DNA of 12,662 nucleotides from the IMG/VR virus record IMGVR_UViG_3300029873_000363, positions 1 to 12,662 of that record. One strand, written 5' to 3'. The position numbers and the translations under genes are program-made. Each line of letters starts with the position of its first letter. Within the stretch, counting starts at the first letter, position 1. Origin of the DNA: a virus. Lineage: Duplodnaviria > Heunggongvirae > Uroviricota > Caudoviricetes. The notes under the pieces are model-generated. The model saw only the letters and a list, made by a program, of their open reading frames with translations. It had not been told where the DNA came from and made no database searches. Positions 1 to 6,108 of this stretch are shown piece after piece.

Positions 1-249
1 ATGCGTATTGAAATCTGCATAGCCAAAGAAAAAATGACTAAAATGCCAACCGGTGCTGTGGATGCGTTAAAGGAAGAATTAACCCGACGCATCAGTAAAC
101 GTTATGACGATGTAGAGGTGATCGTAAAAGCCACCAGCAACGATGGCCTTTCTGTTACGCGCACCGCCGATAAAGATTCAGCTAAAACTTTTGTTCAGGA
201 GACTCTGAAAGATACCTGGAAGTCTGCTGACGAGTGGTTTTTTCACTAA
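1..249 (+). CDS. DinI-like protein (SOS/RecA modulator family), 82 aa
   Basis: ORF begins at window position 1 with MRIEI...; the translation has the DinI-family signature as I remember it (MRIE N-terminus, ~80 aa, acidic C-terminus ending ...[11 protein letters not shown], cf. DinI ...TWESADDWF). The upstream promoter and any LexA box lie outside the window. Confidence 0.75.
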
Positions 250-574
250 TTAACACGTAAAATCGGTAACGGCTGGAAATCATTCAATACTCGCACTATC
301 GAAAGTTCGCTAGCCAGCCGTGGCACGTTCTTGCATACGATGTGCTACGGTTTCATTCATCTCCGACCGGAAACTTCTTATACAAAGTCGATACGCCAAC
401 ATCATAAATGATCGCCACATTCTAGCGAGGAACTCCTGATGCAATTAGTCGCCCGGCCTGCGCCCATTGTTCTGGTGTTTGTTACTATGAGTGTGCAGAA
501 AAATATCGTATAATGCTCTCCTCAGCATCCGTAAAGTATCACGAACTTAGCTTTTAAATAACAAACAACCAGAT

Positions 575-633: not shown

Positions 634-1206
634 GTGTTATCTTACTTAATAGCAATTCATTTTGTTTTACTTGGGAATTCTTCTGATTTAAAAAGCTTTT
701 GGAAATCTGAAGTAATACGGCGGGAGTATATGGATATCTGGAGGCTTTTCAGAGAAAAAAAACAGCGTAACAGGAATTTCCTTTTCTGGTGGCGGCTGGC
801 TAACGAAATGTATATTAATGGTAATAAATTACATAAGAAAGCTGCTAAAAAGTTAAACAATAAAATAATTAACAAATTTGGTTGCGAGATTGGACTGGGA
901 GCAAAAATTGGAAAAGGGCTAACAATTCCTCATCACGTTGGAATTGTTGTTCATTTTGCTGTTGATGCTGGTGAAAATTTGGTGTTACGACAGAATACTA
1001 CGATTGGACAGATAGATGGTGACATACCTGGTTCAAGAGTAAAAATTGGTAGTAACGTTGATATCGGAGCTAATTGTTGCATCATTGGATTATCACGTAA
1101 AATCGGGGATAATGTAAAAATAGGCGCAATGTCTTTTATAAATAAAGATATACCATCAAACTGCACATATATAACTAAAAAGAGCGGTGTTGTATTGTAT
1201 AAATAG
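634..1206 (+). CDS. Hexapeptide-repeat (left-handed beta-helix) acetyltransferase, serine-acetyltransferase/WcaB/NodL-like family
   Basis: GTG start at 634 with a strong AAGGAG SD 6 nt upstream. The C-terminal half shows tandem [LIV]-G-x4 hexapeptide repeats (AKIGKGLTIPHHVGIVV..., VKIGSNVDIGANCCIIG..., KIGDNVKIGAMSF) that align with the CysE/WcaB catalytic domain. The gene is visibly AT-rich compared with the flanking tail genes. An alternative in-frame ATG start exists at 730. Confidence 0.7.
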   Translation: MLSYLIAIHFVLLGNSSDLKSFWKSEVIRREYMDIWRLFREKKQRNRNFLFWWRLANEMYINGNKLHKKAAKKLNNKIINKFGCEIGLGAKIGKGLTIPHHVGIVVHFAVDAGENLVLRQNTTIGQIDGDIPGSRVKIGSNVDIGANCCIIGLSRKIGDNVKIGAMSFINKDIPSNCTYITKKSGVVLYK

Positions 1207-1214
1207 AGCACATA

Positions 1215-1254
1215 AAGCCATCGATATTTCTATCGATGGCTTTTTCTTTTTATT
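1215..1254. terminator. Rho-independent terminator, probably bidirectional, between convergent genes
   Basis: Perfect inverted repeat AAAGCCATCGATA (1215-1227) / TATCGATGGCTTT (1231-1243) followed by a T-tract TTTTTCTTTTTATT on the plus strand. It sits immediately 3' of the acetyltransferase stop (1204-1206) and overlaps the tfa stop (1250-1252, minus). Confidence 0.6.
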
Positions 1255-1828
1255 GTGGGGCGACTGGCCACTCAATATCCGCTGCTACTGTTGTATCAAC
1301 ACGGTTCAGCAACACCCGATACTTTTTCCAGGCTTCCAGCAACGAGTTTTCTTCCTCCGTTGCGATTTCCAGATCTGCAGCATCCTGAAGCGGCGCAATA
1401 TGCTCACTGGCTACCTGCATCAGGTTGTTTTTTGTTTCTTCCGCCTCCCGGATCCGGAACAGTTTTTCTGCTTCCGTATCCTTCACCCAGGCTGTGCCGT
1501 TCCACTTCTGAAACTCCCCTTCCGGCGATAACCAGGTAACATTTTCCGGTAACGGACCGAGTTCAGAAATAAATAACGCGTCGCCGGAAGCCACGTCATA
1601 AACCGTTTTACCCCGATGGTCTTCAACGAGATGCCACGATGACTCATCACTGTTGAAAACAGCCACGAAGCCAGCCGGAATATCTGGCGGTGCAATATCG
1701 GTACTGTTTGCTGGCAGACCTGTATGAGGCGGAATATATGCGTCACCTTCACCAATAAATTCATTAGTTCCGGCCAGCAGATTATAAATTTTTATGGTCC
1801 GTGGTTGTTCAGTCATTCTAAAATCCAT
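1250..1828 (-). CDS. tfa: Tail fiber assembly protein Tfa (lambda Tfa homolog)
   Basis: Translation ...[60 protein letters not shown]... matches lambda Tfa as I remember it. The ORF track starts at a GTG (1834), but the ATG at 1828 preceded by GAGGTG is the likelier start (MDFRMTEQ... vs lambda MAFRMSEQ...). Confidence 0.9.
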
Positions 1829-1836
1829 GTTCACCT

Positions 1837-2727
1837 CTACTTAATATCAGAGACAGAATATTGTTTATTGAGCGTATGGGTGGGAGCACCAATAACGATG
1901 CTACTTCCGTGGCTATGTGCGCCAGAGGTGAGATTGCCTACGGGATTTTCTGGATTAAACCGGTGTGTATGCGAATCAGGGCGAGAGCGATTATTAGTCA
2001 GCACGTCATCAGCCTGATGCACATGGCTAATACAGAACTGCCCGGAACGTGAGCAATACGTCCGATAATCGCCGCATCCAATATATTTAGTATCCGCATA
2101 ACGGCAAACAGAATTACCCGGACAGTATGCATATGTGCCAAATACTGCCGACTGGCGGGATTGTGCGTATTCCCAGTTAATTGATTCTGTTTTTTTATTA
2201 AAGTTATCCCATGCCTGCTTCATCTGCCGGGCAACACTTTCAAACGGCACCTGACCACATCCGGCTCCCATTGCAGGGAATACCACAGTTTTTATTTTCC
2301 TGTCTGTCGTTGCGTGTTTATTGTGCTGAAAGATGGCAAGCAGAGCGGCCCAGGTTGCGTTATATACAGCGTCTGTTCCGTCAATTGTCAGCTGAACACG
2401 CATTGTTGGCGCATGTACCAGCCAGGGGTGATGATTATGCCCCGTTTCAATTACAAATGCAGAACCTACAGGCTGTTCGCCTAAATATTCACGAAGAATA
2501 TGATTCTGAACGCGGGACTGTAACTGAGTACCGAAGAATGCGGTAATGGCGGCATCAACGCCGCCATCCATCAGGCCGAAACTATTTGCCGCACTTACCA
2601 TGCAGTCAAATTCTCTGATTGTTTCAAATGGCTTTCCGACAATATTCACATTATCTGCGTTTGCAAATACCCGCTTAAATGCTTCCGCCATTTCTGTTAC
2701 TGGTGCAGAAAGAATGAGCGTAATCAT
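1837..2727 (-). CDS. Hypothetical protein with macro-domain-like N-terminus and Cys/His-rich C-terminus, inserted between stf and tfa
   Basis: 296-aa ORF whose ATG overlaps the stf stop (ATGA, revcomp of 2724-2727) and whose TAG stop (1837-1839) lies 8 nt before the tfa ATG. The N-terminal ~170 aa carry macro-domain-like motifs: [21 protein letters not shown] (cf. D-x-IVNAAN-x-L-x-GGGVdgAI), GSAFVIETG...WLVHAP, and [14 protein letters not shown] (cf. AFPxISTGxxGxP). The C-terminal ~100 aa have five Cys and several His ([39 protein letters not shown]...SGAHSHGSS). Confidence 0.6.
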
Positions 2728-5393
2728 GCAAGCCTCACAATATAGTTAAATGCGATGTTTTTGACGGTGTTTTCCGCGTTACCAGCAGCGTTAACGGTGA
2801 TGGTGTGTCCATGTGAACCAATCGCAACGGAGTGCGCATGAGCACCAATTGGAACAGAGTGCGCATGGTTACCTGTAGTGCTTGTGGCACCAGACCAGGT
2901 TCTGGAAGCGTTAAAGTTTACAGGAACACCATAAGTAAATTGAGAGCCCGTAAATCCATGGGCTGGCGCAGAGCCACCCAGTGTAAATGCTCCACTTGCT
3001 GTATAGAAATTACCGCTATCACTTCTGAAGTAACCGAGAGTACCGGTAATTTCCATAGTGCCTCGGCTGTGGTTATGGTCACCAGTGGCATTTGAAGACT
3101 TAGTACCATAATCAAACGACGACGTGGTTTTCGTCCCCAAATCCGTACTGGATGCACTGGCGCTGTGGGCGTGCGATTTAATGCCGTCCTGTTCCTGAGA
3201 CAATACGGCACGACCACTGGCAGGTTTGCCCTTAATCGTCCAGCCACGCATATCAGGGATCACGCCTGACGGATAAGCGGCTGCAAGTTTCGGGTAGGCA
3301 GATTTGTCAAAAGTCTGCCCCTGCATCAGGGCATAACCAGACGGAACGGTATCCGATGGCCACGGGATTGGTGCGCCAGGCGGATAAAACTGCTCTGATG
3401 GCGTATAGAGTGAATAAACTGTACCGTCCGTTAACCCTTCCGGCTTATTAGCAGAATATGCTGGTGACGTATGAATCGTCACGCTGGCATTACTGGTATA
3501 ATCCCATTGAATATTTACACCAGTCGCATAATTTCCGATTGCAACGTAAATATCGTAAGTATCACCAGATGTATTGACCCAGGCAAAATTTGTAAACCCT
3601 GTCGATGTGCGCTGCCATAAAGCACCAGTAATCCCCTTCGGATTACCATTACCTGCACGCAAAACAAGTTCAGATATACCTGCCTGTTGAGGTGAACCGA
3701 CGTTAAATCCAGCGCCACCAATCAACGTAATTGAAACAACAGAACTCGCCTGTGGCATGGTTACCGTTGCTAATTTGAACCAACCAGCACCACCGCTGAA
3801 TGACATTGTTGTTGAGTTAAGCGTACCAATATCTTTCGGCGTCAGTGTTATATCCTCCGAAAGCGCCTTACCATTCACCTTACGGTCAGAAGGTACCCGA
3901 TCATTCGCATTGTCATTCGCTGCTTTAACTGCCTTCGGTGTCGCGGCAAGCGTTTCAGACGTACTGTTGGTCGCACTGCTGAGCTGTACTATCCCCTTTT
4001 TCGTCGTGCTCGCATCCTCAAGCGCCACGGCGGATGCAATATCCTCTGCCCGTTTTGCCGCTGTCTCAGCGCGCGTTGCTGCGGATTCTGCCGTACTTTT
4101 GCTCTGTGCTGCCGCTGTCGCACTGCCAGCAGCCTCTGTCGCCTTTGTGGATGCCGTCGTGGCGCTGCTCTTCGCTGCTGACGCCTGTCTGGTCGCCTCA
4201 TCTTTTGAAGCAGACGCCGATGATGCCGATGACGCCGCCGAACTGGCGGACGATGCCGCTGCCGTTTTTGAGGATTCTGCGCTGGTTTCCGACGCTTTCG
4301 CGTTCGTTTCGGATGTCTTCGCTGAGGAAGCAGACCTCGCTGCTGCGCTGGCCTGTTCAGTGGCTTCGCCAGTCTTCGTTGTGGCTGTTGAAGCGGATGA
4401 TGCGGCGCTTTCTGCCGATTTTCCGGCGGCGGTGGCACTGACTGAGGCCTGCCCGGCACTTATTGATGCGGCACTGGCGGACGACGCAGCCGCTGTTTTT
4501 GAATCTGCCGCAGCTGAGGCACTCTGTCCCGCTGCCGTTTCAGAAGACCTGGCGTTCGTCTCGGACGTTTTGGCCGCCTTCGCAGAATTTGCTGTCGCCG
4601 TTGCCGAGGAAGCTGCGCTGCTGGCGCTCGAGGCTGCGCTCGTTTCTGATGATTTTGCCGCCTCTTTTGAAGCCGACGCATCCCGGGCTGAGGTGGCAGC
4701 TTCTGACGCTTTCGTGGTCGCGGTGGATGCAGAAGTGGCTGCTGATTGTTGTGACGCTGCGGCATTCGTTTCTGACGTTTTCGCCGCAGCGGCACTGGTG
4801 GCCGCCGCGCTTTTTGAGGACTCTGCAGCGGCAGCACTTTTTTCCGCTTCAGTGGCCTTTGTTGATGCCGTTTCTGCGCTGGAAGACGCTGACTGAGCCG
4901 ACGACGCGGCCTGTCCGGCTGACGTGCTGGCTGCGCGTGCTGAGCCTGCAGCATCAGTCGCATGGGTTGCCGCCTCACGGGCTGATGTGCTGGCATCGCC
5001 GGCTGACTTCTTCGCGGCTGCCGTGTTCTGTGCCACTGCGGACGCGTTACGCTCCACCTCTTCCACCATCACTTCAAAACGGCGCAGTGCCTCCGGTCGG
5101 ACATCATCCTCCGTCATGGCACCGAGAAAATCATTCAGCGTACCTGGTCTGGAACCTTCATAGACGGTAATGGTCCCGGCATGTGAAGGCGGAAAACCTT
5201 CAACCAGCAGGGTGACGCTGTACTGACCATGCTCAACATCCATGCTGTAACGCCCGGCTTCATCCGGATTTTCAGATGCCAGCGTGTTCACCACCACCGT
5301 GGTACTGTTACGTTTTGCTTTCAGCTGGATTGTGCAGTTCTGTACCGGTTTTCCTGTGCCGTCTTTCAGTACACCTGAAATTTTTACTGCCAT
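2724..5393 (-). CDS. stf: Side tail fiber protein Stf (lambda Stf homolog), 889 aa
   Basis: N-terminus [37 protein letters not shown]... is lambda-Stf-like. A long Ala/Ser/Thr-rich repetitive shaft follows. The C-terminus has the conserved tail-fiber tip motifs (GAPIPWPSD..., [25 protein letters not shown], repeated HxH: [26 protein letters not shown]) and ends ...[11 protein letters not shown]. The ORF is intact here. Confidence 0.9.
3986..5066 (-). repeat. Low-complexity Ala/Ser/Thr-rich repetitive region of the Stf shaft
   Basis: Stf residues ~110-470 are degenerate repeats such as [21 protein letters not shown]. The corresponding GC-rich DNA yields long spurious ORFs on other frames and the opposite strand (Ala-rich and Arg/Pro-rich artefacts). 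Confidence 0.5.
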
Positions 5394-5402
5394 ATTCCCC
5401 CC

Positions 5403-5430
5403 ACAAAAAAGCCCGCCTGAACCGGCGGGC
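5403..5430 (-). terminator. Rho-independent terminator downstream of lom
   Basis: Stem GCCCGCC (5411-5417) / GGCGGGC (5424-5430) with a 6-nt loop; on the minus strand the hairpin is followed by TTTTTTGTGG (complement of the A-run at 5405-5410). It lies 28 nt 3' of the lom stop and about 10 nt 5' of the stf start. Confidence 0.6.
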
Positions 5431-5457
5431 TGTCATAACACTGTGTTACCTGGCTAA

Positions 5458-6057
5458 TCAGAATTTATAACCGACACCAACGATGAAACTGTTGGTACGC
5501 CAGTCACCGCTGCCGGAGCCTTCATAAGCGACATCAACGGCCACGGATTCGGTCGGGTTAAACTGCACGCCAGCCCCCCACGCCAGAGACGTGTTGCTGT
5601 GGCGACCGTCATCACTTCCGGTCAGCACATCGTGCGTTTTCCCCGTATTGTCGGTCACCTGCAGATAATCCCCGGAGAAAGTCGACACACGGCTGTAAGC
5701 CACACCCGCCATCGCATACGCGCTGAACCATTCATTCACGCGCACAGACGGCCCCGCCATCACGCTGAACCAGCGGTTACGCACGGAATCTTCATGCCAG
5801 CGGGTATCGCTGTAATGGGTCAGCTGGCGATTCTTGTCTCCTGCATAGCTGAATGACGTCACCATCCCCAGTGTGTCCGTAAACTCATAACGGTATTTCA
5901 CGTTAATCCCGTTCAGATCATCGCTGCCGGGAACGTTCGTCGAGGCATGAAGATACCCCGCGCTCAGCGTGGACTGATGTTCAGATGCCCATGCAGGCGC
6001 ACCGGATACGGCCAGACAAATGGCTGCGGAAAAAATGGCGGCATAAAGTTTACGCAT
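5458..6057 (-). CDS. lom: Outer-membrane protein Lom (Ail/OmpX/PagC family beta-barrel), lysogenic-conversion gene
   Basis: Translation MRKLYAAIFSAAICLAVSGAPAWASEHQSTLSAGYLHAS... has a signal peptide (cleavage after AWA), alternating beta-strand pattern and C-terminal ...GVGYKF. It closely resembles lambda Lom as I remember it. RBS GAGAGG precedes the ATG. Confidence 0.92.
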   Translation of the reverse strand: MRKLYAAIFSAAICLAVSGAPAWASEHQSTLSAGYLHASTNVPGSDDLNGINVKYRYEFTDTLGMVTSFSYAGDKNRQLTHYSDTRWHEDSVRNRWFSVMAGPSVRVNEWFSAYAMAGVAYSRVSTFSGDYLQVTDNTGKTHDVLTGSDDGRHSNTSLAWGAGVQFNPTESVAVDVAYEGSGSGDWRTNSFIVGVGYKF

Positions 6058-6081: not shown

Positions 6082-6108
6082 AAAAAAGGCACCATTTCTG
6101 GTGCCCTT
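6082..6108 (-). terminator. Hairpin terminator between J and lom
   Basis: Imperfect inverted repeat GGCACCA (6088-6094) / TGGTGCC (6099-6105); on the minus strand it is followed by TTTTTTATTG (complement of the A-run at 6082-6087), directly 3' of the J stop. Confidence 0.45.

Follow-up and report, generated by a model that had tools for sequence, protein, structure and literature searches.

The stretch of DNA analysed here, IMG/VR virus record IMGVR_UViG_3300029873_000363 (12,662 bp; below called the window), carries a gene for a macro-domain protein of 296 amino acids (aa) between the side tail fibre gene stf and the tail fibre assembly gene tfa. The window showed 100% identity to positions 2844190-2856851 of the chromosome of E. 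coli BEC1-S17-ESBL-09 (NZ_AP022298.1) and represents the tail end of a lambdoid prophage. The genes L, K, I, J, lom, stf, the macro open reading frame (ORF) and tfa followed one another on the minus strand, and the plus strand beyond the tail operon contained a low-GC acetyltransferase gene (634-1206) and a DinI-like gene (1-249). The stf-macro-tfa unit consisted of the following features.

2724-5393, minus strand: side tail fibre gene stf, 889 aa, with phage_tail_N and Collar domains and a C-terminal HxH needle.
2727-2861, minus strand: last 45 codons of stf, encoding HxH repeats with a 9-aa period; conserved upstream recombination anchor.
2724-2727, minus strand: stf stop and macro start overlapping as ATGA, kept in 85/85 loci.
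1837-2727, minus strand: macro-domain ORF, 296 aa plus stop codon (RefSeq WP_077557264.1; PHROG 2613, E 6e-141).
1829-1836, minus strand: 8-nt spacer AGGTGAAC with a Shine-Dalgarno (SD) sequence, separating the macro stop from the tfa ATG.
1250-1828, minus strand: tail fibre assembly protein Tfa, 192 aa, 95.3% identical to TfaR of K-12.
1214-1243: bidirectional terminator-like hairpin, ending both the stf-macro-tfa unit and the convergent acetyltransferase gene.

At the upstream junction the plus strand reads TCAT (2724-2727), the macro ATG (2727-2725) overlapping the stf TGA (2726-2724), and the SD sequence of the macro gene, GAGG, is contained within the final stf codons (GTG AGG CTT GCA). 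At the downstream junction the macro stop codon TAG is found at 1839-1837 and the tfa ATG, as chosen in RefSeq, at 1828-1826. No terminator-like hairpin splitting the unit was detected between the stf start and the tfa end, and promoter-like matches in this region were no commoner than in shuffled sequences; a strong terminator-like hairpin was present just upstream of the stf start (5431-5410, minus strand). Since it lacks both a promoter and a terminator of its own, the macro gene is predicted to be expressed late and to be translationally coupled to stf and tfa. A programmed frameshift joining Stf to the macro protein was also considered and was rejected, as the ATGA is preceded by a normal SD sequence in the last stf codons and not by a slippery heptamer.

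To describe the junction across elements, 85 loci were compared, i.e. 80 IMG/VR contigs, Gifsy-1, Chuche, a linear plasmid-prophage, a P1-like plasmid and a P2-like prophage. The 4-nt overlap with the upstream fibre ORF was found in every one of them, and wherever the upstream ORF was readable the fibre ended in ...GNAExTV(K/R)NI(A/V)(F/Y)NYIVRLA. In most of the loci the macro gene was followed by a Tfa of ~190 aa, the start of which was located -11 to +24 nt from the macro stop. The arrangement occurred in lambdoid elements of the siphovirus type (the window, Gifsy-1), in P2-like elements of the myovirus type (Chuche, SEN4/5 and the loci L006 and L185, with the gene order H-macro-G) and in P1-like elements. 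The macro gene was present in 128 of 5,426 complete E. coli genomes; 3,893 (72%) contained the final 122 nt of stf, mostly with at least 95% identity. In the Rac prophage of K-12 the 3′ end of stfR is 99.2% identical to that of the window and is directly followed by tfaR; the only difference between the two junctions is that the window carries ~0.9 kb, comprising the macro gene and a new SD sequence, in place of AATGGC. The Rac junction, the genome counts and the arrangement of the 85 loci together show that the macro gene is a precise, optional and long-lived insertion between the stf stop and the tfa start, and fibre and chaperone do without the macro protein. An earlier, sequence-only reading of the window had described the 296-aa ORF with its ATGA overlap and its stop 8 nt before tfa, without stating the strand; it had also assumed that stf is normally followed directly by tfa and that the ORF might be a variable insertion outside the canonical lambda tail module. 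All of this was borne out by the comparison, the strand being the minus strand.

The insertion travels together with its neighbours. Positions 552-2862 of the window were 92.6% identical to a P2-like prophage, the matching region spanning the last 45 stf codons, the macro gene, tfa and the convergent acetyltransferase gene. The adjoining segment of stf (~2863-3099, residues ~765-843) was hypervariable and is presumably the receptor-binding tip; its flanking blocks were 83-94% identical in other E. coli cassettes, and the macro gene was linked to several versions of the segment. The cassette moves among lambdoid, P2-like and P1-like elements, with the conserved fibre C-terminus and the Tfa N-terminus as recombination anchors. 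The 9-aa HxH needle repeat of Stf is encoded by a 27-nt tandem repeat (2810-2867, 2.1 copies), at which fibre genes are likely to recombine with one another. Pseudogenised copies of the macro gene with a frameshift or an internal stop were observed occasionally (L004, 5001-5892; L056, 3904-4632), e.g. in a P1-like plasmid with fragmented fibre genes.

The macro domain and its two ligand-binding loops were located as follows.

2143-2727, minus strand: macro domain proper, residues 1-195, the extent common to ~200-aa stand-alone homologues.
2554-2586, minus strand: loop-1 motif N48-SFGLMD-G55-G56-V57-D58, placed by hhalign to YmdB and near-invariant in 69 sequences.
2245-2277, minus strand: loop-2 (diphosphate-binding) motif, residues 151-161, with an invariant G158 and without the aromatic residue of the MacroD type.

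The Pfam model Macro (PF01661) matched residues 44-169 (2221-2598) over its full length (1-118) with an E-value of 5.4e-19 and 68.7 bits against a cut-off of 22. The model Macro_2 (PF14519) yielded 24.6 bits, below its cut-off of 27, and the match was limited to residues 42-101; a precomputed PF14519 match is present in several close homologues. A structure model calculated with AlphaFold2 (AF2) from an alignment of 69 sequences had a predicted local distance difference test score (pLDDT) of 84 overall and of more than 95 over residues 1-200. Foldseek analysis of this model revealed the three-layer alpha/beta/alpha macro fold, with a probability of 1.0 to more than 200 solved macro-domain chains. 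The best match in the PDB was 1NJR, the yeast ADP-ribose-1''-monophosphatase Ymx7 (E 2.4e-11, 201 columns, rmsd 2.9), followed by macroH2A, TTHA0132, OiMacroD, the macro domains of PARP9/14, DarG, MacroD2 and YmdB. Ymx7 (1NJR) was also the best PDB match of the family profile (E 6.5e-16). The window protein is a genuine macro domain and a member of the Ymx7/Appr-1''-pase-like clade. Ymx7 (YMR087W; PDB 1NJR, 1TXZ, 1TY8; Macro_2-like clade) and the window protein share the motifs VS(A/P)(A/G)NS(F/Y)G..GG(V/F)D, H.PT...P and PG..TG..G.VP. Identity between the two is, however, ~20%, the Macro_2 score of the window protein is sub-threshold, and Ymx7 is a eukaryotic housekeeping protein that has neither a Cys/His extension nor a phage context.

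Alignment of the family profile with E. coli YmdB by hhalign (probability 95.4%, E 1.8e-8) paired D41 with D18, N48 with N25, G55-G56-V57-D58 with G32-G33-V34-D35 and T62 with H39. D41, the adenine-contacting Asp just upstream of the loop-1 motif, as well as N48, G55-G56-V57 and G154-x-G156-x-G158 aligned with YmdB, TTHA0132 and Ymx7 alike. N48, G51, G56, D58 and G158 were invariant or nearly so in the 69 sequences, and N48 and D58, corresponding to N25 and D35 of YmdB, are presumably the catalytic residues. The window protein thus resembles the MacroD-type hydrolases (YmdB, human MacroD1/2, OiMacroD from Oceanobacillus) in its adenine Asp and its N-x6-G-G-V-D loop, and the residues named in the OiMacroD mutants (N30/G37/D40) have the same +7/+10 spacing as the window motif. 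It differs from them in loop 2, which reads GCGQVP as opposed to GVYGYP (PAISTGVYGYP) in YmdB and lacks the MacroD-type aromatic residue, and in its scores against the YmdB-type equivalogs of NCBIfam (20-48 bits against cut-offs of 200-315). The protein has retained the ligand-contacting and the Asn/Asp catalytic-type residues, yet is no orthologue of YmdB/MacroD.

The window protein is not of the DarG type either. The NCBIfam DarG model (NF048014) scored 12.5 bits against a cut-off of 250, and the DarG model of PADLOC 14.5 bits with 39 residues covered. Among predicted viral structures (BFVD), the nearest were macro proteins of giant viruses and jumbo phages belonging to the clade of the window protein (Noxifer, PhiPA3 gp271); a phage 133 homologue of Tk.4, the AdfM protein of T4, ranked 32nd (E 8.6e-5). 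The ratio of nonsynonymous to synonymous substitutions (dN/dS; NG86, 57 distinct alleles) was 0.08 for the macro domain, 0.43 for the linker that follows it, 0.17 for a Cys module and 0.41 for the C-terminal tail. The macro domain is under strong purifying selection.

Past the macro domain the protein continues with an extension of ~100 aa, consisting of the linker (residues 176-198) and two further parts.

2005-2133, minus strand: Cys4 module, residues 199-241, AYCPx4Cx16Cx6C...HQxDD, with C202, C208, C225 and C232 invariant.
1840-2004, minus strand: His-rich C-terminal tail, residues 242-296, with HxH repeats (HTH, HSH and a degenerate PTH) like the needle repeat of the fibre.

The Cys4 module is a putative metal site and was modelled by AF2 as a beta-hairpin and a helix (pLDDT 66-81). 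The tail, for which the monomer model gave a pLDDT of less than 50, was variable among alleles and had the terminal motif LNxxYxSxxK. Local alignment of the tail with the C-terminus of the cognate fibre scored better than 500 composition-preserving shuffles (p<=0.01) in 46 of 47 distinct locus pairs, with a median z of 4.9; for the window allele the corresponding figure was 19/1000 in composition-preserving shuffles. In some Salmonella alleles the tail repeat had a period of 9 aa, the same as in the fibre. The tail therefore resembles the HxH needle of T4 gp37/lambda Stf-type fibre tips in its IGAHxH-type repeats, in the 9-aa period of some alleles and in a similarity exceeding that of shuffled sequences. 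It differs from that needle in having only 2-4 HxH repeats and in showing no Pfam, PHROG or BLAST homology to it: Pfam and PHROG searches with the C-terminal 120 aa (residues 177-296) yielded nothing outside the protein's own family and no fibre match, and BLASTP of the macro protein against its own stf gave an E-value of 0.04. When the last 101 aa were compared with 5.8 billion proteins, two short fragments only and no other protein context were found. Overall, the extension may be regarded as a metal-binding, fibre-mimicking tail. Its origin in a recent duplication of the fibre 3′ end was rejected, there being no DNA similarity between the macro gene and stf (best match 17 nt).

The extension was confined to the enterobacterial fibre-linked clade, both in two alignments of the wider family (A2 and A3, 51 members) and among the top 150 hits. 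In the P2-like H-macro-G locus L185 (2068-2970), the 300-aa macro protein showed a different extension, which was also Cys/His-rich (CGC..CDCGCG..CRCG plus HxH); its C-terminus, GAHxHGVKK, is that of an Erwinia-type allele.

A total of 1,721 homologues were obtained at E<1e-5, with names such as 'macro domain-containing protein' or 'phage tail protein', and the best 120 of these came from Escherichia, Salmonella, Citrobacter, Enterobacter and Erwinia. The PHROG 2613 proteins of Gifsy-1 (STM2588.1n), SEN4/SEN5 and Chuche, which are annotated as macro-domain proteins, were 61-94% identical to the window protein and showed the same fibre-macro-tfa order. They differed from it as alleles only, with lengths of 300, 289, 274 or 269 aa as compared with 296 aa; the degenerate last HxH (PTH) is a feature of the window allele. 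The wider family comprised 2,270 clusters at 50% identity (E<1e-3), and in the two alignments and the top 150 hits it consisted mostly of stand-alone proteins of ~200 aa matching residues 2-195, together with some eukaryotic fusions. These stand-alone homologues lacked the C-terminal extension. No conserved neighbour was observed for 69 stand-alone bacterial homologues (Chloroflexi, cyanobacteria), and a Pfam scan of 136 flanking proteins detected no ADP-ribosyltransferase, TIR or SIR2 domain. Another scan of viral sequences, started from distant homologues, led mostly back to the enterobacterial loci already found. On jumbo-phage contigs, stand-alone homologues were located amid arrays of small accessory ORFs. 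Microcystis phage Mae-JY35 (L088, 3935-4492) encoded a 185-aa homologue (PHROG 2613, E 2e-51) between virion structural and DNA-ejection proteins, with 4-nt overlaps on both sides. Because of this position within a structural/ejection module, the Mae-JY35 homologue hints that the link of the macro clade to virion genes extends past the enterobacterial fibres.

The gene is already labelled in databases. RefSeq/PGAP lists WP_077557264.1 as 'macro domain-containing protein', the Gifsy-1 record of STM2588.1n states 'contains pfam01661, Macro', and PHROG 2613 is labelled 'unknown function'. In the full-text literature on the gene family, on Gifsy-1 STM2588 and on 'Appr-1-p' with tail fibres, no functional study was found. 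Of the further claims made in the sequence-only reading, the macro-domain assignment was substantiated by the Pfam, AF2 and Foldseek results; its three motif blocks were present (residues 41-61, 88-107 and 148-161), and the adenine- and distal-ribose-contacting residues were kept in the alignments to YmdB and Ymx7. The suggestion of an undescribed gene did not hold in view of the existing database entries, nor did a relationship to DarG in view of the two DarG models and the rank of the Tk.4 homologue. The plain anti-DarT explanation offered there is, in addition, complicated by the late, fibre-coupled expression and by the fibre-like C-terminal extension, which had been missed. New aspects are the assignment to the Ymx7-like clade, the exact and invariant placement, the spread over three phage lineages and the fibre-mimicking tail.

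Several further features were observed around the unit. The acetyltransferase gene mentioned above lies convergent with tfa.

634-1206, plus strand: hexapeptide-type 'serine acetyltransferase' gene, GC content 0.32-0.35, with a promoter-like site at 575-604.

This gene was a frequent but non-obligate companion of the cassette (18/68 related loci) and accompanied macro-tfa in the P2-like prophage L006. It looks like a moron modifying lipopolysaccharide (LPS) or O-antigen beside a host-range cassette. At other loci, different acetyl- or glycosyltransferases were found at this position (L004). Strong terminator-like hairpins at 5410-5431 and 6085-6108 (minus strand) flank lom (5458-6057), which fits lom as a self-contained moron. 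Residues ~100-500 of Stf (~3900-5100) formed a long Ala/Ser/Thr-rich low-complexity region with a GC content of ~0.6 and an AT skew of -0.34 to -0.50, unlike the rest of the gene. At the prophage end, by the DinI-like gene (1-249), short stretches that bear the annotations 'capsid protein' fragment and helix-turn-helix pseudogene were detected as remnants (246-478, minus strand). In the same prophage outside the window (L001, 22202-23308), an IS200C transposase was found within the gpU tail-terminator gene. Due to this interruption the prophage is probably defective, though its macro gene is intact.

We tentatively interpret the macro protein as a late-made protein that hydrolyses or binds ADP-ribose, is anchored to the fibre/chaperone complex and counters ADP-ribose-based immunity; this reading may well be correct, although it falls short of being probable. 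In the cytoplasm of the cell that makes it, the protein would bind a derivative of ADP-ribose and would probably hydrolyse a 1''-linked substituent, i.e. a phosphate, an acyl group, an amino acid or a nucleic acid. The fibre-like metal-binding tail would dock it on the Stf/Tfa assembly complex or would have it handled together with this complex. The pay-off would be that an ADP-ribose-based weapon of the host or of a competitor, such as an ADP-ribosyltransferase toxin or a TIR/ADP-ribose-derived signal, is neutralised where and when fibres are made. A role in counter-defence is plausible because phage macrodomains have been proven to act as anti-DarT2 factors. Several points weigh against this interpretation. 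No biochemical or genetic test of the family was found in the literature, and neither Stf nor Tfa showed co-adaptation to the macro protein. For most tasks in counter-defence, late expression is badly timed, and the window protein is not DarG/AdfM-like. Lacking the aromatic residue that MacroD-type hydrolases have in loop 2, the protein could be a binder and not an enzyme. The suggested tether derives from motif similarity, with a tail of which the AF2 model is unconfident, and the stand-alone bacterial homologues have no conserved partner pointing to a substrate.

An alternative is that the protein is carried by the virion, its HxH tail trimerising or docking on the Stf needle, so that the macro domain rides on the side fibre and acts or binds outside the cell at adsorption or is otherwise carried to the next host. 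The strict fibre-macro-chaperone synteny with its translational coupling, the clade-specific fibre-like HxH tail and the position of the Mae-JY35 homologue would all agree with such an accessory, as would the many database entries named 'phage tail protein', although these names are uncurated. Side fibres, however, stay outside the cell, the macro gene is paired with several different receptor-binding tips, and the conserved residues that contact ADP-ribose are shared with cytoplasmic homologues of ~45-50% identity; no ADP-ribose-like ligand is known from enterobacterial surfaces. We therefore consider a virion-borne function unlikely. A deacetylase carried by the fibre and opposing LPS modification by the neighbouring acetyltransferase was likewise judged unlikely, as the macro protein shares its conserved residues for binding adenine and diphosphate with cytoplasmic homologues. 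The location between the fibre and its chaperone, together with the metal binding suggested by the Cys4 and HxH extension, could also indicate a helper of fibre assembly. It would be a further chaperone or would load metal onto the Fe/Zn-binding HxH needle, and the macro domain would serve as no more than a scaffold or nucleotide sensor. This is very improbable, given that near-identical Stf C-termini and Tfa occur without a macro gene (in K-12 Rac as well as in most of the 3,893 genomes with the stf end, as against 128 with the macro gene), that the macro protein shows no similarity to Caudo_TAP chaperones (PF02413 matched only the downstream ORF 1250-1828, E 2.3e-42) and that the catalytic-type macro motifs are strongly constrained.

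The antitoxin-like function put forward in the sequence-only reading, by which the protein would strip DarT-made ADP-ribose from phage DNA, has a clear precedent. The AdfM macrodomains of T4 (Tk.4) and of chimalliviruses (PhiKZ gp104/PhiPA3 gp108) are DarG2-like DNA de-ADP-ribosylases and proven anti-DarT2 factors (PMC13309987; bioRxiv 10.1101/2025.11.20.689424), and DarG macrodomains were among the fold matches of the window protein (5M3I, 5M3E, E ~3e-6 to 9e-6). AdfM and the window protein have in common that they are phage-encoded and have the macro fold. The active site of DarG2/AdfM is, however, of the Asn/Lys type (PMC13309987) and AdfM is encoded outside the tail module, whereas the window protein has the N...GGVD motif of the MacroD/Ymx7 type; PhiPA3 carries a member of the window clade, gp271, separately from its AdfM, gp108. 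With both DarG models failing, the Tk.4 homologue at a low rank and a late fibre operon that is expressed after DNA replication needs protection, this function appears improbable. There is also little likelihood that the gene is a hitch-hiking passenger or a benefit to the lysogen, derived from one ancient insertion, spread by recombination in its flanks and serving the host or prophage, e.g. by reversing ADP-ribosylation by superinfecting T-even phages or toxins. One insertion event would account for the identical junction at every locus, the flanking anchors for recombination are highly conserved, and lom and the acetyltransferase gene nearby are classic morons; but the macro gene has no promoter or terminator of its own and is translationally coupled on both sides, and hitch-hiking alone leaves the clade-specific fibre-like tail unexplained.

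Side tail fibres folded with chaperones were reported to set how sensitive phages are towards type II Thoeris, in which a macro domain recognises the signal histidine-ADP-ribose (His-ADPR) (bioRxiv 10.64898/2026.06.04.730250). A more specific version of the counter-immunity function is that fibre and macro gene form a cassette of trigger and antidote, in which the macro protein, produced together with just such a fibre-chaperone pair and perhaps tethered to it by the HxH tail, would act at the place where the alarm goes off. There it would cleave or sequester an immune signal of the 1''-linked ADP-ribose type (His-ADPR or glycocyclic ADP-ribose (gcADPR)), or would remove ADP-ribose from the fibre complex. 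We regard this as improbable. If it were true, host-range cassettes would bring their own immune silencer along when moving between lambdoid, P2-like and P1-like phages.

Phage macrodomains have only recently been shown to be counter-defence enzymes, and those are DarG-like and encoded outside the tail module. The macro protein of the window belongs to a different, Ymx7-like clade and is fixed in the tail-fibre/chaperone unit of three unrelated lineages of temperate phages. Should it merely be a housekeeping-type ADP-ribose phosphatase without phenotype, it would be an ordinary, already annotated accessory gene. Action on a signal or adduct derived from ADP-ribose, on the other hand, would make it the representative of a new enzymatic class of anti-immune proteins, and would show that the cassettes by which these phages swap host range carry anti-immunity cargo.

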